From assembly GCF_029227855.1 (NCBI RefSeq), contig NZ_CP074356.1: a stretch of DNA of 64,000 nucleotides; one strand, 5' to 3'. The notes under the pieces were generated by a model that was not told the origin of the DNA, searched no databases, and was given only the letters and a program-made list of their open reading frames with translations. Origin of the DNA: Escherichia coli (GTDB lineage Bacteria; Pseudomonadota; Gammaproteobacteria; Enterobacterales; Enterobacteriaceae). A program made the translations under genes and the position numbers. Positions 12,916-24,916 of this stretch are shown here, piece by piece (position 1 is the first letter of the stretch; every line of letters starts with the position of its first letter).

Positions 12916-13515
12916 ATGCGTAAAGTTTGTGCCGCCATTTTTTCCGCAGCCATTTGTCTGGCCGTATCCGGTGCGCCTGCATGGGCATCTGAACATCAGT
13001 CCACGCTGAGCGCGGGGTATCTTCATGCCTCGACGAACGTTCCCGGCAGCGATGATCTGAACGGGATTAACGTGAAATACCGTTATGAGTTTACGGACAC
13101 ACTGGGGATGGTGACGTCATTCAGCTATGCAGGAGACAAGAATCGCCAGCTTACCCGTTACAGCGATACCCGCTGGCATGAAGATTCCGTGCGTAACCGC
13201 TGGTTCAGCGTGATGGTGGGGCCGTCTGTGCGCGTGAATGAATGGTTCAGCGCGTATGCGATGGCGGGTATGGCTTACAGCCGTGTTTCGACTTTCTCCG
13301 GAGATTATATCCGCGTAACTGACAACAAGGGGAAAACGCACGATGTGCTGACCGGAAGTGATGACGGTCGCCACAGCGACACGTCTCTGGCATGGGGGGC
13401 TGGCGTGCAGTTTAACCCGACCGAATCCGTGGCCATTGATATTGCTTATGAAGGTTCCGGCAGTGGCGACTGGCGCACTGACGGTTTCATCGTTGGTGTC
13501 GGTTATAAATTCTGA
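12916..13515 (+). CDS. lom: Lom-like outer membrane beta-barrel protein (Ail/PagC/OmpX family)
   Basis: 199 aa with signal peptide, alternating aromatic beta strands and terminal Phe; sits after J as in lambda. Confidence 0.9.
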
Positions 13516-13569: not shown

Positions 13570-14272
13570 TGCACAGAAAACCCCCAGCTAGGCTGGGGGT
13601 TCCGGAAAGCTTTCAGCTTTGAGCCAGTTATTAAAACCCCTTTTGATTTGTTAAAACACTTTGCGGTCTGGCAACTGCAAGTGTCAAACAAGAAATCAAA
13701 AGGGGGTCCCAATGGGGAACGAAAAGAGCTTAGCGCACACCCGATGGAACTGTAAATATCACATAGTTTTTGCGCCAAAATACCGAAGACAGGTGTTCTA
13801 CAGAGAGAAGCGTAGAGCAATAGGCAGTATTTTGAGAAAGCTGTGTGAGTGGAAAAGCGTACGGATTCTGGAAGCTGAATGCTGTGCAGATCATATCCAT
13901 ATGCTTGTGGAGATCCCGCCCAAAATGAGCGTATCCGGGTTTATGGGATATCTGAAAGGGAAAAGCAGTCTGATGCTTTACGAGCAGTTTGGTGATTTGA
14001 AATTCAAATACAGGAACAGGGAGTTCTGGTGCAGAGGGTACTACGTCGATACAGTGGGTAAGAACACGGCGAAGATACAGGATTACATAAAGCACCAGCT
14101 TGAAGAGGATAAAATGGGAGAGCAGTTATCGATTCCCTATCCGGGCAGCCCGTTTACGGGCCGTAAGTAACGAAGTTGGATGCAAATGTCAGATCGTGTG
14201 CGCCTGTTAGGGCGCGGCTGGTAAGAGAGCCTTATAGGCGCATTTGAAAAACCTCCGGCTATGCCGGAGGAT
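13568..14272 (+). mobile_element. IS200-type insertion sequence (IS200/IS605 family); boundaries approximate
   Basis: About 0.7 kb, a single Y1 transposase gene, left-end hairpin AAAACCCCCAGC-TAG-GCTGGGGGTT and a second stem-loop over the tnpA ribosome binding site. Confidence 0.65.
13712..14170 (+). CDS. tnpA: IS200-type transposase TnpA (HuH Y1 transposase)
   Basis: 152 aa with an HxH-type motif (HIHMLVEI) and the usual IS200 TnpA length. Confidence 0.85.
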   Translation: MGNEKSLAHTRWNCKYHIVFAPKYRRQVFYREKRRAIGSILRKLCEWKSVRILEAECCADHIHMLVEIPPKMSVSGFMGYLKGKSSLMLYEQFGDLKFKYRNREFWCRGYYVDTVGKNTAKIQDYIKHQLEEDKMGEQLSIPYPGSPFTGRK

Positions 14273-14290
14273 ATTTATTGTGGAGTGGAT

Positions 14291-16696
14291 ATGGCAGCAG
14301 TAAAAATCTCAGGTGTGCTGAAAGATGGTGCGGGAAAACCAATACAGAACTGCACTATTCAACTGAAGGCAAAGCGTAACAGCACCACGGTACTGGTGAA
14401 CACGGTGGCTTCTGAAAATCCGGATGAAGCCGGACGTTACAGCATGGATGTTGAGTATGGCCAGTACAGCGTCACCCTGCTGGTTGAAGGTTTTCCGCCT
14501 TCACATGCCGGGACCATTACCGTCTATGAAGGCTCCAGACCAGGTACGCTGAATGATTTTCTCGGTGCCATGACGGAAGATGATGTCATGCCGGAGGCAT
14601 TGCGTCGTTTTGAGGCAATGGTGGAAGAAGTGGCACGCAACGCCGAAGCCGCCTCTCAGAGCGCAGCGGCGGCAAAGAAATCCGAAACTGCAGCGGCATC
14701 ATCAAAGAACGCGGCGAAAACCTCAGAAACGAATGCAGCTAATAGTGCACAGGCGGCAGCGACCTCAAAGACTGCATCGGCAAACTCCGCGACAGCAGCC
14801 AAAAAATCAGAAACCAACGCGAAAAATAGCGAGACAGCCGCAAAGACGAGCGAAACCAACGCAAAGTCCAGCCAGACGGCAGCGAAAACCAGCGAAACGA
14901 ATGCCAAAGCCAGTGAAACTGCGGCAAAAAACAGCCAGGTTGCAGCAGCCCAAAGCGAGAGCGCGGCAGCCGGTTCTGCGACTTCAGCAGCTGGATCAGC
15001 AACTGCTGCGGCTAACAGCCAGAAAGCTGCGAAGACGAGTGAAACTAACGCAAAGTCCAGCCAGACGGCAGCGAAGACCAGCGAAACGAATGCCAAAGCC
15101 AGTGAAACTGCGGCGAAAAGCAGTCAGGATGCAGCGGCCCAAAGCGAGAGTGCCGCAGCCAGTTCTGCAAGCGCGGCGGCTGCTTCTGCCACTGCATCAG
15201 CCAACAGTCAAAAAGCAGCAAAAACCAGTGAAACCAACGCAAAGGCGAGCGAGACTGCGGCGGCGAACTCGGCGCAAGCATCGGCAGCAAGCCAGACAGC
15301 AGCTAAAGCAAGTGAAGACGCAGCCAGAGAGTATGCAAGCCAGGCAGCGGAGCCGTATAAATATGTCTTACAGCCACTGCCTGATGTGTGGATACCGTTT
15401 AACGATTCACTGGATATGATTACGGGCTTTTCGCCATCATATAAAAAAATTGTTATTGGCGACGATGAAATAACAATGCCTGGCGACAAGATTGTAAAGT
15501 TTAAACGCGCATCGAAAGCAACTTACATTAATAAATCTGGTGTGCTGACAGAGGCTGCCATTGACGAGCCACGATTTGAACGTGATGGCCTGCTTATTGA
15601 GGGGCAAAGAACTAACCTGCTAATCAATTCAACAAATCCGACTAAATGGAACAAGTCGTCAAATATGATCTTAAGTGCATCAGGTGTAGATGATTTCGGA
15701 TTCCAGTACGCAAAATTTACATTAAAACCAGAAATGGTAGGGCAAATTTCAGCGATTAACATAGTAACCGTTTCCGGCAGTAAAGGTTTTGATGTAACAG
15801 GCGGAGAAAAGTATGTAACCATATCATGCAGGGTGCAAAGTGGCACTCCAAATTTAAGATGCCGATTACGATTTGAAAACTATGATGGTTCTACCTACAC
15901 ATTCTTAGGTGACGCTTACTTAAATACGACAGATTTATCTATTGATAAGACGGGTGGTGCCGCTAATCGCATTACTGCAAGGGCTGTTAAAGATGAAGCA
16001 AGCAAATGGATCTTTTTTGAGGCGACAATTAAGGCACTTGATACAGAAAATATGATAGGTGGAATGGTTCAGTATGCCCCGGCAAAAGGAGTGGGCACTG
16101 GCGCGGATGATTATATTTATATTGCGACCCCTCAAGTTGAAGGTGGGGCGTGCGCTTCATCGTTTATTATAACAGGCGCATCCCCTGTAACACGCGCCAG
16201 CGATATTGTAACGGTCCCCATTTCTCTAAATTGGTGCAATCCCGCTATTAGTTCATTAGCAGAAGTTAATACCAATTGGGATGAATCGCCAAACAAAGAA
16301 GGTAGCGCACGTATTCTTAATATTTCCACTACGGGAGATACAACTGAAATTGCAGATGAAAGTTATATGTATTTGGGGTATACATCTTTGGGAGCACGCG
16401 CAATCATTACAAATGGTAAAGGCACTAAAATAGAATATAAAAGCGTTATAGAACGACCAGAGAGAAAAAGCATTATCGGCTTTAGATTCACAGAAAGTCG
16501 AGAATTGTGTGTTGTGGTTAACGGTAATATTGGTGCTAAGGTGGTTTCTCCTTATAAAAAACACAAATATACAGGAGGCTTCATTAATATTGGTGGTCAA
16601 TCATCATCCGGCAACCGTCACCTATTTGGACACGTTCGAAATCTGCGTATTTGGCACAAGGCATTGACTGATGCTCAGATGGGGGAGTCAATCTAA
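14291..16696 (+). CDS. stf: Side tail fibre protein: lambda Stf-like N-terminus, Ala/Ser/Thr-rich repeats, divergent C-terminus with LamG/concanavalin-like domain
   Basis: The first ~130 aa match recalled lambda Stf (MAVKISGVLKDG..QNCTIQLKAKRNSTT); the C-terminal region is AT-rich and ends in a LamG-type motif (NLRIWHKALTDAQM). Confidence 0.9.
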   Translation: MAAVKISGVLKDGAGKPIQNCTIQLKAKRNSTTVLVNTVASENPDEAGRYSMDVEYGQYSVTLLVEGFPPSHAGTITVYEGSRPGTLNDFLGAMTEDDVMPEALRRFEAMVEEVARNAEAASQSAAAAKKSETAAASSKNAAKTSETNAANSAQAAATSKTASANSATAAKKSETNAKNSETAAKTSETNAKSSQTAAKTSETNAKASETAAKNSQVAAAQSESAAAGSATSAAGSATAAANSQKAAKTSETNAKSSQTAAKTSETNAKASETAAKSSQDAAAQSESAAASSASAAAASATASANSQKAAKTSETNAKASETAAANSAQASAASQTAAKASEDAAREYASQAAEPYKYVLQPLPDVWIPFNDSLDMITGFSPSYKKIVIGDDEITMPGDKIVKFKRASKATYINKSGVLTEAAIDEPRFERDGLLIEGQRTNLLINSTNPTKWNKSSNMILSASGVDDFGFQYAKFTLKPEMVGQISAINIVTVSGSKGFDVTGGEKYVTISCRVQSGTPNLRCRLRFENYDGSTYTFLGDAYLNTTDLSIDKTGGAANRITARAVKDEASKWIFFEATIKALDTENMIGGMVQYAPAKGVGTGADDYIYIATPQVEGGACASSFIITGASPVTRASDIVTVPISLNWCNPAISSLAEVNTNWDESPNKEGSARILNISTTGDTTEIADESYMYLGYTSLGARAIITNGKGTKIEYKSVIERPERKSIIGFRFTESRELCVVVNGNIGAKVVSPYKKHKYTGGFINIGGQSSSGNRHLFGHVRNLRIWHKALTDAQMGESI
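14837..15214 (+). repeat. In-frame tandem duplication, 2 x 189 bp (63 aa each), inside stf
   Basis: Two near-identical 63-aa units (AAKTSETNAKSSQTAAKTSETNAKASETAAK...ANSQK) within a wider 9-aa periodic region. Confidence 0.8.
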
Positions 16697-16986: not shown

Positions 16987-17691
16987 ATGGCTACATCAAC
17001 AGTAATTCCGGGAGACATCACCACGCTGAAGGGAGATGTTAGTAAAGCAAAGGAAGATATTTCCTCTATTAACGGAAAAGTATCAACGCTTCAGACTGAT
17101 ATGGCCAGTGCAAAGCAGGATATCAGCACCAGATACACAAAAACTGAAGTTGATAATAAGCTGAAAAACAAAGTGGAAGTGAACGATCTGGAAAGTGGTC
17201 GTTATGGCGGAGATTTTTACCCGCTGACTGGCCGTGAAGCGTTTTATTTATGGGGATTGGGCACAACTACAGCGGCGGCAAATCTTTATCTTAATCCTGA
17301 CCCTGCAATTTCGTCTGTGCTGCGGTCAACATCGTCTATCCGCTATAAACATTCAGTAGAGACGATAGATTCAGAGCACGCCGATCTCATTTTCAGGATG
17401 CGCCCTGTGTGGTACAGGTCGCAATGCGAAAATGACAGGCGTGACTGGGGATTCTATGGATTGATTGCCGAGGAAGTTGGAGAAATTGCCCCTCAGTTTG
17501 TTCACTGGCGACCAGCCAACGAAGATGATGCACCGGAAACCATTTCCAGCAATGGCCTTGTTGCCGAAGGTGTAATGTACGAACGTCTGGTTGTTCCACT
17601 GATTCACCATATCCAGAAGCTGACTGAAAGAGTTGATGAACTTGAGTCAGAATTAAAGTTGTTATCCGTTTCCCGAAGCGATATCGGATAA
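16987..17691 (+). CDS. Short fibre-like protein: N-terminal coiled coil plus C-terminal intramolecular-chaperone (Peptidase S74-like) domain
   Basis: 234 aa; heptad-like N-terminus; C-terminal region has S-x-x-R-x-K (SSIRYKH), RPVWYR and GLIAEEV motifs resembling endosialidase chaperone domains. Confidence 0.55.
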   Translation: MATSTVIPGDITTLKGDVSKAKEDISSINGKVSTLQTDMASAKQDISTRYTKTEVDNKLKNKVEVNDLESGRYGGDFYPLTGREAFYLWGLGTTTAAANLYLNPDPAISSVLRSTSSIRYKHSVETIDSEHADLIFRMRPVWYRSQCENDRRDWGFYGLIAEEVGEIAPQFVHWRPANEDDAPETISSNGLVAEGVMYERLVVPLIHHIQKLTERVDELESELKLLSVSRSDIG

Positions 17692-17701
17692 AGGAGGCGT
17701 A

Positions 17702-17995
17702 ATGGATATAACACCTTTCCTTCATGCACTTTGTGCTGTGGCTGCGCAGGTACTGGTTGGTCTTTTTACCGGAAACTGGGCTTACGGGGCGATAGCTGGT
17801 TGTACGTTCTTCATTGCGCGTGAACATACCCAGGCAGAATATCGCTGGATTGAAATGTTCGGGCATGGCAAGCGTATGAATATGCCGTGGTGGGGCGGTT
17901 TTGATCCGCGTGCGTGGGATGTGGCAAGCCTGATGGATTTTGCTGTGCCGGTGGTGGCGTGTCTGCTGGTCTGGCTGTTGGTTAATCGTGGGTGA
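17702..17995 (+). CDS. Hypothetical small membrane protein (2-3 predicted TM segments)
   Basis: 97-aa ORF with hydrophobic stretches; GGAGG Shine-Dalgarno upstream. Confidence 0.45.
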   Translation: MDITPFLHALCAVAAQVLVGLFTGNWAYGAIAGCTFFIAREHTQAEYRWIEMFGHGKRMNMPWWGGFDPRAWDVASLMDFAVPVVACLLVWLLVNRG

Positions 17996-18005
17996 AAAAA
18001 GGTGA

Positions 18006-18125
18006 GCTGTATATGCAACGGAGGAAGAAACCTCGTTGCGGGAAGCCTTGAAGAAGTATCGGGTGTTGCTGAACCGTGTTGATACGTCAACTGCACAGGA
18101 TATTGAATGGCCAGCACTGCCGTAG
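18006..18125 (+). pseudogene. tfa: Tail fibre assembly (Tfa) gene remnant: only the conserved C-terminal ~39 codons
   Basis: Translation [29 protein letters not shown] matches the conserved Tfa C-terminus; the frame closes at a stop just upstream at 18003-18005. Confidence 0.55.
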
Positions 18126-18222
18126 GGTAAAACATATAAATTCTATAATTAGATGTATCTTTCCATTTACGGCAAGGAAGGGGGCTTGGAAGACGTAAGG
18201 CATCTCACACCGAGATTATTTT

Positions 18223-18813
18223 TTATATGTCAGGTGTCTGAAGTTTTGCTTTGGCTCTTAAAATGGTTTGCCGCGAGGTTTTGAATTCCCGGGCAATGGC
18301 ACTTATACTTACACCTGACTTAATCCGTTCGAATACCACCTGTTTCTGTTCTTCATTTAACACAGGTGGTCGACCAAAACGTTTCCCTGCGCCCCGGGCT
18401 CTTACTATCCCGGAATGAGTGCGTTCAAGTAAAAGGTCTCGTTCAAATTCAGCGACTGCTGAAATTACTTGCATCATCATTTTTCCTGTTGGACTGGTCA
18501 GGTCAATGCCCCCCAATGCTAAGCAATGCACTCTGATACCTGTTTCGGTCAGTTGTTCCACTGTTTTCCTGATATCCATTGCATTACAACCAAGGCGATC
18601 CAGTTTTGTCACAATCAATTGATCACCACATTTCAGGCGAGCAAGCAACCGGTTAAAACCAGGACGCTCACTGGTTGCTGCTGAGCCGCTAATGTGTTCT
18701 TCGATTATTTGCTGAGGTTTGATTTTAAAACCTGCACTTTCGATTTCCCGGCGTTGATTTTCGGTGGTCTGATCCAGCGTTGATATCCGACAGTAAGCAA
18801 AAATTCGAGACAT
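18223..18813 (-). CDS. pinQ: Serine recombinase / DNA invertase (PinQ/PinR-like)
   Basis: 196 aa; N-terminal catalytic region (YCRISTLDQ) and C-terminal helix-turn-helix; convergent with the tfa remnant, next to ydfK. Confidence 0.85.
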
Positions 18814-19129
18814 AGTGAGACTCTATACGAAATTGGTGTTCATATCATAATGCATCTCAGAAAATAATTTTGATTATTTTTTTGCATGTTTGTATGTACA
18901 CGTTCGAAAATAAACGAATGCGTATGCAACCCCGTAATTTTGGTGAGACCCAAAATCGATTTTGTGAAAAATGGCTTTAACTCGGTTTGTTTTTCGAGTT
19001 CCGGGCGGACTCAAGGAAGAAGAATAGTGTTGCGTGTTATTTTAACCAGATTTCAAGTTGTTTGGTCGTGGAAAAGTGGAGCAAAATGTTGTTAAAGTGG
19101 AAAAATGATAAAAAAGTAAGTTTATTATA

Positions 19130-19363
19130 TTACATTTTACCATTTAAATTTTGGTTGTCTTTAAGAACTGATATCGCTGTTTGTAATAATTCTTTGTTAT
19201 CCAGCCATGATTTGTTCTTTATGTTTCCTTCAATGTAATCAAGCAATGTTCTGGTATTGATAGGTCTTCCCTGTTTTGCTACTTCCACTACAGCATCCCC
19301 TAGGATAATTCTGACTTCAGGAAGCTGCGCAGGGAACCACTTTAGGGTGTCTTTTGATTTCAT
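19130..19363 (-). CDS. ydfK: Small prophage protein YdfK/YnaE-like
   Basis: 77 aa from the internal Met (MKSKDTLKWF...), matching the recalled YdfK length and its position next to pin. Confidence 0.55.
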   Translation of the reverse strand: MKSKDTLKWFPAQLPEVRIILGDAVVEVAKQGRPINTRTLLDYIEGNIKNKSWLDNKELLQTAISVLKDNQNLNGKM

Positions 19364-20147
19364 GAATATATTCCTTAAAATATTATTGATTTTCATTGCG
19401 ATATTGTATGTCTGATTCAGGATATGTTGACTTATACATCGGTTTTGTCTGGGTTATTGGATATGCCAATCCCTAATTTTATTAGAGCATGACTAAAAAT
19501 GCTGAATATGATAAGGAGCGAAGTGATTATCAGTATGCTGTTCATATAGCCTCGAATTAGTAATGTGTTATATATGATATAGTTGACAATTTTTATCCTG
19601 GGTGTTCTTAAAGTTCGTAGATAAACATTGTCGTTTCAGGTATACAGGAATGCTAACAGATGGCGGCAAAAATCAGGCGGTTTATGGCGCAAGCTGAAGT
19701 GGCAACTGCAAACTATCTTATGCAGAGACTCTACACGGATTGGGTTTAAAAGTATACATAGATAACAGTTTTTATCTGAAGAAGAAAAATATCAAGGTGA
19801 TATAGCCTATATGCCTTTGATGCGGAGGAATGAATGTGATGGGAGTGATGTATCTGAATAGTTGAAAAACCGCAGACACGCCTTATGCAAGAACGTGCTG
19901 CGGTTGGCTGGTAAATTTTTCGATAGTGCGAGTATTGAATGATTTCCAGCCGTTATTGATTTTACGCGTAACTCCATGAAAAAACTACTTATCTGTTGAG
20001 GAGTTTTTTGGGGCATATATGGGACAGAAATAGGCCCCAGATAGACACTGAGATCGAACTTAGGATGCTTTTTAAAAAATGCAACTATCTGAAAAAACCT
20101 AGAAAACGCCAAGGAAACCACAGGATGGGAAAAAACACCTGTGAATT

Positions 20148-21431
20148 ATGGATTTCCAGTTATATTCGCTCGGCGCAGCGTTAGTGTTTCATGAAATATT
20201 TTTTCCTGAATCATCAACGGCAATGGCGTTAATTCTGGCAATGGGAACCTACGGTGCAGGTTATGTGGCGCGTATTGTCGGAGCATTTATTTTCGGCAAA
20301 ATGGGCGACAGAATCGGGCGTAAAAAAGTGCTCTTTATTACCATCACCATGATGGGGATCTGTACCACCTTAATTGGTGTGCTGCCGACCTATGCACAAA
20401 TTGGTGTGTTTGCGCCAATTTTGCTGGTGACGCTGCGTATTATTCAGGGGCTGGGGGCAGGCGCGGAAATTTCCGGTGCCGGCACGATGCTGGCGGAATA
20501 TGCACCAAAAGGTAAGCGCGGAATTATCTCCTCATTTGTTGCTATGGGGACTAACTGCGGAACCTTGAGCGCAACGGCAATCTGGGCCTTTATGTTCTTC
20601 ATTCTCAGTAAAGAGGAACTGCTGGCGTGGGGATGGCGTATACCGTTCCTGGCGAGCGTTGTCGTGATGGTCTTTGCTATCTGGTTGCGTATGAATCTGA
20701 AAGAAAGCCCGGTCTTTGAGAAGGTTAACGACAGCAACCAACCGACAGCAAAACCTGCACCTGCTGGTAGCATGTTCCAGAGCAAATCCTTCTGGCTGGC
20801 AACAGGGCTGCGTTTTGGTCAGGCTGGTAACTCCGGTTTAATTCAGACTTTCCTTGCAGGCTATTTAGTGCAGACGTTATTGTTTAACAAAGCAATTCCA
20901 ACAGATGCATTGATGATCAGTTCGATTCTCGGCTTTATGACCATTCCGTTCCTTGGTTGGTTATCCGATAAAATTGGTCGCCGGATCCCGTATATTATTA
21001 TGAATACCTCTGCGATTGTGCTGGCGTGGCCAATGCTTTCTATCATCGTAGATAAAAGCTATGCCCCGAGCACCATTATGGTTGCACTGATTGTGATTCA
21101 TAACTGTGCGGTGCTGGGATTATTTGCTCTGGAAAACATTACCATGGCAGAAATGTTCGGCTGTAAAAACCGCTTTACCCGGATGGCTATTTCTAAAGAA
21201 ATTGGTGGTCTTATCGCTTCCGGTTTTGGTCCTATCCTGGCGGGTATTTTCTGCACCATGACGGAATCCTGGTATCCGATCGCCATTATGATCATGGCAT
21301 ATTCAGTGATTGGTTTAATCTCTGCGCTGAAAATGCCAGAAGTGAAAGACCGTGATTTAAGTGCGCTGGAAGACGCTGCGGAAGATCAACCGCGTGTTGT
21401 CAGAGCTGCGCAACCTTCCAGAAGTCTTTAA
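20148..21431 (+). CDS. ydfJ: MFS metabolite:H+ symporter YdfJ, N-terminally truncated at the prophage junction
   Basis: Frame opens right after a TGA at 20142-20144 and starts within the first transmembrane region, so about 20-30 N-terminal residues are missing. Confidence 0.8.
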   Translation: MDFQLYSLGAALVFHEIFFPESSTAMALILAMGTYGAGYVARIVGAFIFGKMGDRIGRKKVLFITITMMGICTTLIGVLPTYAQIGVFAPILLVTLRIIQGLGAGAEISGAGTMLAEYAPKGKRGIISSFVAMGTNCGTLSATAIWAFMFFILSKEELLAWGWRIPFLASVVVMVFAIWLRMNLKESPVFEKVNDSNQPTAKPAPAGSMFQSKSFWLATGLRFGQAGNSGLIQTFLAGYLVQTLLFNKAIPTDALMISSILGFMTIPFLGWLSDKIGRRIPYIIMNTSAIVLAWPMLSIIVDKSYAPSTIMVALIVIHNCAVLGLFALENITMAEMFGCKNRFTRMAISKEIGGLIASGFGPILAGIFCTMTESWYPIAIMIMAYSVIGLISALKMPEVKDRDLSALEDAAEDQPRVVRAAQPSRSL

Positions 21432-21519
21432 ATCCTCAATCCCTTCTCTTACCGGAGAGGGGATTTTTATTCATATAACAAAACATGTAGCTTGCCATAT
21501 TTATGTTTAAGGAATTGTT

Positions 21520-22980
21520 ATGGGAAATAATTTGTTATCAGCAAAAGCGACACTCCCTGTTTATGATCGTAATAACCTGGCCCCAAGAATTGTTCATTTA
21601 GGCTTTGGTGCATTTCACCGTGCGCATCAGGGCGTGTATGCCGATATTCTTGCTACAAAACATTTCAGTGATTGGGGATATTATGAGGTCAACTTAATCG
21701 GCGGCGAACAGCAAATTGCCGATTTACAACAGCAAGATAATCTTTATACCGTTGCGGAAATGTCGGCCGATGCGTGGACGGCTCGCGTCGTTGGCGTCGT
21801 TAAAAAAGCCTTGCACATACAAATAGATGGCTTAGAAACCGTGCTGGCTGCGATGTGTGAACCGCAAATCGCGATTGTCTCTCTGACAATCACCGAAAAA
21901 GGGTATTTCCACTCTCCGGCGACCGGACAGTTAATGCTCGATCACCCGATGGTCGTTGCCGACGTACAAAATCCCCACCAGCCGAAAACTGCAACAGGGG
22001 TGATTGTCGAGGCGCTGGCTCGCCGTAAAGCGGCAGGACTTCCCGCATTTACCGTCATGTCATGTGACAACATGCCAGAAAACGGTCATGTTATGCGTGA
22101 CGTTGTCACTTCCTACGCGCAAGCTGTTGATGTAAAACTGGCACAATGGATCGAAGAAAACGTGACTTTCCCATCAACAATGGTGGACCGTATTGTGCCC
22201 GCAGTGACAGAGGATACGCTGGCGAAAATCGAACAACTTACCGGTGTGCGCGATCCTGCTGGCGTTGCCTGTGAACCTTTCCGCCAGTGGGTAATAGAAG
22301 ATAACTTTGTTGCCGGACGTCCGGAATGGGAAAAAGCGGGAGCCGAACTGGTTAGTGATGTGCTGCCTTATGAAGAGATGAAGTTGCGCATGCTCAACGG
22401 CAGTCATTCATTCCTGGCGTATCTGGGGTATCTTGCCGGATATCAGCACATTAATGACTGTATGGAAGATGAACATTATCGTCATGCAGCGTATGCCTTG
22501 ATGTTGCAGGAACAAGCGCCGACGTTGAAAGTGCAGGGCGTTGATTTGCAAGATTACGCTAACCGATTAATTGAACGCTATAGCAACCCGGCGCTACGTC
22601 ATCGAACCTGGCAGATTGCGATGGATGGCAGCCAGAAATTGCCACAGCGGATGTTGGATTCTGTTCGCTGGCATCTGGCGCATGACAGCAAGTTCGATCT
22701 GCTGGCGCTGGGCGTCGCAGGTTGGATGCGTTATGTCGGTGGTGTTGATGAACAGGGAAATCCGATAGAAATCAGTGACCCACTGTTACCTGTTATTCAG
22801 AAGGCTGTACAAAGTAGTGCCGAAGGGAAAGCGCGCGTCCAGTCATTGCTGGCGATTAAGGCGATCTTTGGTGATGATTTGCCAGACAATAGCTTGTTTA
22901 CTGCAAAAGTGACGGAAGCGTACTTGTCTTTATTAGCGCATGGTGCGAAAGCGACCGTGGCGAAATATTCCGTGAAGTAA
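21520..22980 (+). CDS. ydfI: Mannitol dehydrogenase-family oxidoreductase YdfI
   Basis: 486 aa with an N-terminal Rossmann fold ([14 protein letters not shown]). Confidence 0.9.
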
Positions 22981-23010
22981 AAAAGCAATGCCGCCATCGG
23001 CGGCATTCAC
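22981..23010. terminator. Bidirectional terminator hairpin between ydfI and ydfZ
   Basis: AATGCCGCC-ATC-GGCGGCATT palindrome flanked by A- and T-rich runs. Confidence 0.6.
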
Positions 23011-23014
23011 ACGC

Positions 23015-23218
23015 TTAGTTCATGCCGAGACGAATCAGGTCCAGAGGTGCCAGTTTCTCTTCACAACCTTCAACAACTACGGTTTTTCCGCGGCGGATTT
23101 GCTCAGCGGTCAGACCTTCAGTATCAATCGACAGGATCTTGCCAGTGTGACCGGTGCCGCTAACCATAACACGGCTGCCAGTGGTGATTGCGTTACGGTT
23201 ACGATCGTAGGTCGTCAT
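23015..23218 (-). CDS. ydfZ: Selenium-binding protein YdfZ
   Basis: 67-aa ORF matching recalled YdfZ ([28 protein letters not shown]). Confidence 0.85.
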
Positions 23219-23394
23219 AGGTGTTTTCTCCTTTCTGATTTACAGTCGAAGCCCACGTAACGGGCGCAATATAAATACTCCTGTCGAGTGAAATATTTTT
23301 TGTTTTTGATCAAGCTCACATCTTTTTTGATGCATGCATGAGCCATAAGGCGGGGGGAAAGACTCTCACCCCGGATGGGATGAGAGGAAATGAA

Positions 23395-24081
23395 TTACTC
23401 TTCGCTAAACCAGTCGCTGTTTTCCTGGCGGATCTGGCGCACGGATTCGCTGATTTCCTGCAAATGTTGCGTCATTGCACGTTCTACCGCATCGCCATCA
23501 CGTTTTTGCAGGGCAGAGAAAATATCAAGATGCTGGCGTAACAGCATTTCTGGTGGAGAAACGTGGTCGAAACTCATATAGCGCACGCGATCAACGGTCG
23601 CTTTCAGGTTCTCAATGGTATCCCACGCCAGTTGACAGTCGGCAATCTGGGTCAGGAGTTGATGGAAGTTGTCATCAAGTTCAAAAAAATCATCCAGTTG
23701 CTTGCGCTCAATGGCAATGCGTTGCTGGTGAAGATTTTGTTCCAGTTGGTAGCACTGGCTTTCGGTAATCATGCTCGCCGCCCGACGCGCCACCGCGCAC
23801 TCAATGGCCTGACGGATAAAACTGCCGTTGCGCACCTGGGCCATGGAAATTTTGTTGACGTAGCTGCCACGCTGCGGACGAATTTGAATCAGGCCGTTTT
23901 CCGCCAGTTTAATAAAGGCTTCACGAACCGGCTGGCGTGACACATTGAAACGAACAGAAACTTCTTTTTCCGACAACGGTGTGCCTGGTGCAATCAGGCA
24001 ATGGACAATGTCGCGACGAAGAATACGATAAATCTGCTGATTGACAGGCTGTGTGGGATTAAGTTGCGTTTCGACGGTCAT
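23395..24081 (-). CDS. ydfH: GntR/FadR-family transcriptional regulator YdfH (RspR)
   Basis: 228 aa with an N-terminal GntR helix-turn-helix and FCD-type C-terminal domain. Confidence 0.9.
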
Positions 24082-24169
24082 TCGTTCTTGCTTGTGAGTG
24101 AGTTAACTGCATGAGTCTACCACTTTTTTGTGACAAGCAATAACCCGGCAGTTACGCCGGGTATAAAAA

Positions 24170-24916
24170 TTACTGACGGTGGACATTCAGTCCGGCATAG
24201 CTTTGGGTAACCGGCATCATTTCCAGGGTATTGATATTGACGTGAGCAGGCAGCGTTGACACCCACCAGACGGCTTCGCTGACATCTTCTGGCGTCAATG
24301 CAACGGTATTTTGATAGGTTTTTTCCGCTTTACCGTCATCGCCTTTAAAGCGGACATTGGAAAACTCGGTGCCACCCACCAGACCCGGCTCGATGTCGGT
24401 GACGCGCACCGCCGTACCATGCAGGTCCGTACGCAGATTCAGGCTAAACTGACGAACAAACGCTTTCGTCGCACCGTAAACGTTACCACCGGCATACGGC
24501 CAGCTGCCTGCCGTTGAGCCAATGTTAATAATATGACCATGATTACGTTCAACCATACCCGGTAAGACGGCGCGCGTCATATATACCAGGCCTTTGTTGT
24601 TGGTATCAATCATCGTTTCCCAGTCTTCAACGCTGGCTTTATGCGCAGGCTCCATGCCCAACGCCAGGCCGGCATTATTTACCAGGATATCAATATTGCA
24701 CCACTCGGCAGGAAGCGATGCCAGCATCTCTTCAATAGCGGCGCGGTTGCGAACGTCCAGTTGGGCGATATAAAGATTATCTCCCAGTTCGTCTTTTAAC
24801 TCCTGCAACCGCTCCTGGCGACGGCCAGTGGCGATAACTTTATGCCCTTGTTGAATAAAACGACGAGTAATGCATTCACCAAAACCTGCCGTTGCTCCAG
24901 TTACTAAAACGATCAT
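24170..24916 (-). CDS. ydfG: NADP-dependent 3-hydroxy acid dehydrogenase YdfG (SDR family)
   Basis: 248 aa from MIVLVTGATAGFGE (TGxxxGxG motif); Shine-Dalgarno upstream of ATG 24916. Confidence 0.9.
   Translation of the reverse strand: MIVLVTGATAGFGECITRRFIQQGHKVIATGRRQERLQELKDELGDNLYIAQLDVRNRAAIEEMLASLPAEWCNIDILVNNAGLALGMEPAHKASVEDWETMIDTNNKGLVYMTRAVLPGMVERNHGHIINIGSTAGSWPYAGGNVYGATKAFVRQFSLNLRTDLHGTAVRVTDIEPGLVGGTEFSNVRFKGDDGKAEKTYQNTVALTPEDVSEAVWWVSTLPAHVNINTLEMMPVTQSYAGLNVHRQ

Follow-up and report, generated by a model that had tools for sequence, protein, structure and literature searches.

The open reading frame at 20148–21431 (+ strand) of the window, by which we mean the whole 64-kb stretch of Escherichia coli DNA analysed here, comprises 427 codons and a stop and corresponds to residues 29–455 of YdfJ, an MHS-family MFS transporter of 455 aa in its intact form. 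Its start ATG is the internal Met29 codon of the intact gene, and we refer to it as ydfJ', the 3' remnant of ydfJ. The remnant matches the Pfam models MFS_1 (E=2.6e-37) and Sugar_tr. Against TIGR00883, the NCBIfam MHS subfamily model, it reaches 453.5 bits (462.9 bits for the intact protein) and exceeds the cut-off of 443.45, so that by sequence score it belongs to the MHS family (TIGR00883 / TC 2.A.1.6). PGAP labels every inspected copy of the split ydfJ a pseudogene ("incomplete; missing N-terminus"), and the same junction is found in thousands of genomes; the remnant is therefore not a chance feature.

At its start the frame reads CTG TGA ATT ATG GAT, with TGA at 20142–20144, ATT at 20145–20147 and the ATG at 20148–20150. 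The preliminary description had placed the ATG directly after a stop codon; the stop does lie close upstream, but one sense codon (ATT) stands between TGA and ATG. The in-frame TGA (+ strand), two codons 5' of the ATG, is derived from the phage and ends the frame. It is one of five in-frame stops within 150 nt 5' of the ATG, the other four lying further upstream, and there is consequently no longer fusion frame.

The DNA upstream of the junction belongs to a lambdoid prophage. A pinQ-type serine recombinase (invertase) gene (18223–18813), ydfK, encoding the cold-shock protein YdfK (19130–19363), and ynfT, a YnaM/YnfT small protein gene by the annotation of near-identical loci (19432–19545), all lie on the strand opposite to ydfJ' and read away from it, and tail-fibre and tail genes are found further left of pinQ. 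The AT-rich interval of ~600 bp that follows ynfT (19546–20147) carries no annotated gene, and a minus-strand ORF within it (19807–20121, 104 aa, GTG start) has no Pfam match. Neither an annotated gene nor an ORF recognised by Pfam lies in its right-hand part, the AT-rich prophage end by attR (19870–20141, GC 36–40%). This stretch recurs even where the adjacent prophage genes are different, which fits an attP arm, and the last ~270 bp of the phage end are presumably that arm, with Int and IHF sites. An Rfam search over 17500–22000 returned two matches only, both below threshold: IS009 at 17993–18091 (+; 63.7 bits against a gathering threshold of 117), near the boundary between the tail-fibre-assembly gene and pinQ, and the Shigella sRNA CssrB at 19765–19902 (+; 28.7 bits, threshold 76), within the gene-free end of the phage upstream of ydfJ'.

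Five strains, CFSAN061763 among them, carry prophages that are 99.9% identical to window positions 1–20200. An IS200-like element of ~702 bp (13572–14273), whose ORF at 13661–14170 (+) matches Pfam Y1_Tnp (E=5e-38), lies between a lom-like gene (12916–13515) and a tail-fibre gene (14261–16696). It is absent from the CFSAN061763 prophage, which aligns in two pieces with a 9-bp overlap where the element is inserted. The 811-aa tail-fibre gene also contains a direct repeat of ~249 bp (14825–15073 and 15014–15262; 83% identity, offset 189 bp).

To the right of the remnant, a strong terminator-like hairpin with a 12-bp stem and a T-run (21438–21465, +) comes directly after the ydfJ stop codon. It is followed by ydfI (21520–22980, +), a mannitol-dehydrogenase-family oxidoreductase gene and the downstream chromosomal member of the rspA–rspB–ydfJ–ydfI cluster. 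A sigma-70-type hexamer pair, ATGCCA-17-TTTAAG (21333–21361, +), which was proposed for ydfI (PMC3946193), falls inside the 3' end of ydfJ'. Given this proposed promoter and the hairpin after ydfJ, ydfI may be transcribed independently of the split.

Both prophage-free strains and related species carry the uninterrupted allele. In the prophage-free strain GN06156 (sampled locus L001, 3924–5291), ydfJ has 1,368 nt and encodes 455 aa, and rspA, rspB, ydfJ and ydfI are contiguous, in the same order as in seven further strains. Compared with the GN06156 protein, the remnant lacks exactly 28 residues, which falls within the loss of 20–30 residues suggested earlier. Orthologues from prophage-free strains that start at the same Met had been named as the observation that would speak against a truncation; the start found in such strains lies 28 residues upstream. 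Orthologues in Citrobacter, Enterobacter, Lelliottia and Leclercia likewise have 455–460 aa and start ~28 residues upstream of Met29. Residues 8–28 (R.T.DLVKAAVSGWLGTALEF), which the remnant lacks, are nearly invariant across these full-length orthologues, and remote homologues (30–60% identity) align from query residue ~7–20. In an alignment of 100 MHS homologues, G23, E27, D30 and Y34 were each conserved in at least 90%. The products of rspA, rspB and ydfI have been linked to L-gulonate/D-mannonate catabolism; if this link holds, YdfJ is likely the uptake carrier of the cluster, with L-gulonate or related hexonates as candidate substrates.

When the intact locus was compared with the window by BLAST, the alignment ran only from 20142 rightwards, with prophage DNA upstream, as expected if ydfJ is 5'-truncated by the prophage. 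With the same query, rspB, the 57-bp rspB–ydfJ spacer and ydfJ codons 1–28 were not found in the 64-kb window, which agrees with the earlier proposal that the native promoter has been displaced. In the closest genomes the missing 5' part lies ~46.4 kb away, beside int and xis, both of which are intact in these relatives. The two ydfJ parts of CFSAN061763 are separated by 46,421 bp (attL to attR), and its attL fragment, a 36-aa frame in which MTIEK...EFMDF is fused to KSHAC and a stop, adjoins the intact integrase and excisionase genes; int and xis also lie next to the 5' ydfJ fragment in JNEC-KY178. The left edge of the window already lies within the prophage, whose own int end is outside, and attL is seen in the near-identical relatives only. 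Phage genes thus flank the junction, and at the opposite end an integrase gene lies by the other ydfJ fragment.

Aligning attB (from GN06156), attL (from CFSAN061763) and attR (from the window) defined an exact att core, TTATGGATTTC, at 20146–20156, as part of an extended imperfect core, TGAATT(T)ATGGATTTC, at 20142–20156. The resemblance to the uninterrupted allele stops at this short core, which is repeated at both prophage ends. The exact core includes the Met29 ATG (20148–20150), and for this reason the remnant still begins with an ATG. In thousands of genomes the two pieces of the split gene overlap by 16–19 bp, in agreement with the att of 18–19 bp that was defined experimentally for ydfJ prophages according to the S7 Fig legend of PMC8112680. 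In the same source the attP of a ydfJ prophage was defined by PCR, which shows that excision occurs.

We modelled the intact protein with AlphaFold. A shallow alignment of 15 sequences gave an unusable model (pLDDT 44) and was replaced by a run with 100 sequences, which gave a pLDDT of 93.5 and a pTM of 0.91. The modelled fold is canonical for the MFS and resembles XylE, GLUT3 and other MFS structures, with TM-scores up to 0.75 (XylE, 0.75); among PDB sequences, phmmer detected no relative at E≤1e-5. Helix 1 is predicted to comprise residues 10–45 (pLDDT ~95). Met29 lies within it, so the remnant begins, as had been proposed, inside the first transmembrane helix. In the model of the 455-aa form the cut after residue 28 falls in the middle of TM1, and 19 of the 36 predicted helix-1 residues are lost, G23 and E27 among them; the remnant also lacks the cytoplasmic N-terminus. 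Of the TM1 motif G-x3-E-x2-D-F-x3-Y, only D30, F31 and Y34 are left, and the conserved TM1 motif of the MHS family is therefore incomplete. Judged by the model, the complete 12-helix MFS fold with a full-length TM1 is likewise not encoded. In profile terms the loss amounts to MFS_1 positions 2–32 and ~25 positions of the ShiA model.

No convincing signal for expression was found upstream of the remnant. A scan for consensus promoters over 19300–21600, a crude one, gave three sites, compared with 5.0±2.6 in shuffled sequences. The sole promoter-like site on the + strand (19354–19381) lies inside ydfK, ~770 bp upstream of ydfJ'. No Shine–Dalgarno motif of the AGGA/GGAG type occurs in positions −25 to −1 of the ATG at 20148. 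Genomic SELEX in K-12 listed an RNA polymerase entry between ydfI and ydfK ("ydfI<>ydfK"; PMC3946193), which we considered as a promoter facing ydfJ' and rejected: both of its hexamer pairs map inside ydfJ', one at 21333–21361 (+), serving ydfI, and the other at ~20523–20550 (−). As these pairs lie in the body of ydfJ', the entry is silent on a promoter upstream of 20148.

We compared window positions 19400–21600 by megablast with 5,426 complete E. coli genomes. Matches fell into three classes, starting at query positions 1, 471/485 and 743, that is, at window positions 19400, 19870/19884 and 20142; the prophage-free GN06156 belongs to the last of these. The ynfT–attR–ydfJ' arrangement is shared by 1996 genomes. 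A 301-bp query centred on attB found the site intact in 2009 of the 5,426 (~37%); most remaining genomes are split at the same point, and the site is occupied in ~62% of complete genomes.

Allele comparisons were based on a small, non-random sample of 12 split and eight intact ydfJ alleles. The full 427-codon frame is uninterrupted in all 12 split alleles, which segregate 45 synonymous and six non-synonymous changes. Split and intact alleles are interspersed. The window allele differs from the intact RIVM_C037884 allele at 3 of 1284 nt and from other split alleles at 24–30 nt, and another split allele is a single nucleotide away from the intact O104:H4 allele. This interspersion, with split–intact distances of 1–3 nt, implies that the split state has arisen or reversed many times recently; integration and excision appear to be frequent and, on an evolutionary scale, recent, and this recency accounts for the absence of damage in the remnant ORF. 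We considered the 45:6 ratio as a sign of selection on the remnant and rejected it, because split alleles lie 1–3 nt from intact ones; the deep synonymous divergence would have built up while the genes were intact.

Singleton amino acid changes fell at orthologue-invariant sites, with invariance judged across 14 orthologues, in five of six cases in split alleles (S157L, G190E, M237I, G381S and R430H) and in none of five in intact ones (Fisher p=0.015). Protein variants drawn from the 90% clusters, used as a second sample, gave 6/11 in split against 8/23 in intact alleles and was not significant alone (p=0.46). Pooled, the counts were 11/17 and 8/28 (p=0.029; the samples are small, non-random and possibly overlapping). 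In the pooled data the split fraction is compatible with the 74% expected under neutrality, and the intact one falls far below it (p=6e-7). As supportive evidence, these comparisons suggest that constraint is relaxed at the tips while ydfJ is split.

Some of the split copies show additional lesions. In strain 12689 (L009, 2121–2201 and beyond), the ydfI gene downstream of the split ydfJ is also a pseudogene, with an internal stop, and in two other strains (H11 and H17) an IS3-family element lies within ydfJ'. We read these lesions as an indication that the cluster has decayed further in certain lysogens.

The reading that we consider very probably correct is that ydfJ is split by the prophage, that the remnant is probably silent and non-functional, and that ydfJ can be regained by precise excision. 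By site-specific recombination, a lambdoid prophage that belongs, like Qin and the PPydfJ prophages, to the ydfJ-integrating type entered the 5' part of the gene. The crossover core TTATGGATTTC carries the Met29 ATG, and the phage arm contributes the in-frame TGA just upstream; the retained ATG together with the phage TGA accounts for the clean-looking 427-codon ORF. Codons 1–28, the rspB–ydfJ intergenic region and rspA–rspB thereby came to lie beyond the window, at the opposite prophage end with int and xis. Left without half of TM1 and with neither a promoter nor a ribosome-binding site that could be recognised, the remnant is most likely silent and non-functional while the prophage is resident. 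Since the recombination is conservative, precise excision would rebuild the intact 455-codon gene. The sequence evidence leans towards a remnant that is most likely neither expressed nor functional. We infer that excision would restore the gene in this strain too, whose integrase end lies beyond the window.

A complete native gene starting at this Met, with the 455-aa form an annotation extension, deserves practically no credence. The ATG soon after a stop and the long, clean ORF are what such a gene would show; yet residues 8–28 hardly vary between genera, the alignments of remote homologues and family profiles reach into residues 7–28, and similarity to prophage-free strains breaks off precisely at the att core, beyond which lies phage DNA. 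It is also quite unlikely that the 427-aa product is made from an outward promoter or by read-through from the phage arm and works as a transporter or leak, with residues 29–45 inserting in the membrane. The unbroken ORF in 12/12 split alleles and the score above the TIGR00883 cut-off would fit such a product, and so would observations from K-12. There, a Keio ΔydfJ strain showed altered growth in an azithromycin screen (PMC9405208), and TCDB, as quoted in PMC10971958, lists K+ as a YdfJ substrate. In the K-12 literature ydfJ is also among the differentially expressed genes of the Qin region after DicC induction. The expression signal, the azithromycin phenotype and the K+ listing leave room for some transcription and activity of the K-12 remnant. 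However, yhdW, the other "resistant" match of the azithromycin screen, is a K-12 pseudogene as well, and this shared status suggests a cassette artefact or noise. Also against an active product are the lack of a promoter-like site above chance and of a Shine–Dalgarno motif, the divergent orientation of the adjacent phage genes, the loss of more than half of helix 1 with G23 and E27, and the PGAP pseudogene call. Moreover, the rare substitutions in split alleles strike invariant residues at a neutral rate, and recent integration accounts for the integrity of the ORF.

The split might instead act as a reversible switch of the kind called active lysogeny, in which regulated, non-lytic excision restores ydfJ, and with it the rspAB–ydfJ unit, when substrate is available. 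We regard this as unlikely. Recombination at an 11-bp core within the ORF is conservative and excision restores the gene, the closest relatives retain an intact int and xis, about 62% of sites are occupied with split and intact alleles 1–3 nt apart, and attP formation was shown for a ydfJ prophage in PMC8112680; each of these would suit a switch. Nothing in these data indicates that excision is regulated or non-lytic, however, and ordinary lysogenisation and curing explain the interspersion of alleles equally well. Many occupants are cryptic remnants, such as the 20-kb Qin of K-12, the integrases of some strains are inactivated by IS elements (PMC8112680), and the internal stop in ydfI of one split strain speaks for decay rather than switching. 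Taking these two possibilities together, we doubt that the locus represents either a reversible switch of sugar-acid uptake and catabolism by rspAB–ydfJ(–ydfI) or an active, TM1-truncated 427-aa protein, for instance in a K+ pathway. We therefore retain a prophage-split gene with a probably silent remnant as the preferred reading.

Prophage-split genes that are restored by excision include Listeria comK with φ10403S, and Bacillus subtilis sigK with skin and spsM with SPβ. As at ydfJ, an ORF in those systems harbours a temperate element and is reassembled when conservative site-specific recombination excises it; there, however, excision is regulated by development or host signals and function has been demonstrated. 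The split of ydfJ is itself already known: for Qin in K-12, both the 28-codon truncation and the loss of the promoter have been published (PMC6379469). The K-12 remnant shares with ours the junction, the Met29 ATG and the phage TGAATT, all identical, the missing 28 codons and promoter, and the pinQ–ydfK–ynfT right end, with 98.3% identity over window positions 18014–24600. What differs here is the occupant, which is full-size (~46.4 kb in the 99.9%-identical relatives, with complete tail genes) rather than a 20-kb remnant like Qin, and the IS200-like insertion at 13572–14273. The ydfJ allele differs from that of K-12 at 26 nucleotides, all synonymous. PPydfJ prophages of STEC (O157:H7, O26:H11 and O177:H25) use the same locus and att sequence as the prophage here (PMC8112680). 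They often bring nleC/nleG loci for T3SS effectors, together with secondary attB sites for further phages; the visible part here ends in pinQ–ydfK–ynfT. Rac at ttcA in K-12 (PMC6379469) is likewise a lambdoid prophage at the 5' end of a host gene, but there the phage gives a replacement N-terminus and a full-length variant is encoded; at ydfJ it supplies a stop codon and no replacement.

The main value of these results lies in correct annotation, to which the population data are modest, confirmatory additions. The 427-aa "YdfJ" of older databases, the orphan transporter of K-12 knockout and metabolomics screens, is a prophage-truncated fragment. Phenotypes assigned to it call for caution, and functional work on YdfJ would be better done with the 455-aa allele of a prophage-free strain. 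The locus also illustrates that a prophage hotspot can leave a host gene interrupted in the majority of strains with no visible decay, with constraint apparently relaxed only at the tips.

The collection of alleles contained further variants of the site. FDAARGOS_1261 (L020, 1447–1457) has an intact allele in which a synonymous core variant, TTATGGACTTC, replaces TTATGGATTTC. The allele group to which it belongs (L017–L020, including O25b:H4) is intact in all four samples. Finally, a 431-aa protein variant (P0283, EGO6535358.1) carries a foreign N-terminus, MQEECRQK, joined at Leu33 of YdfJ, a junction of a different type in which the upstream DNA does provide an in-frame start.
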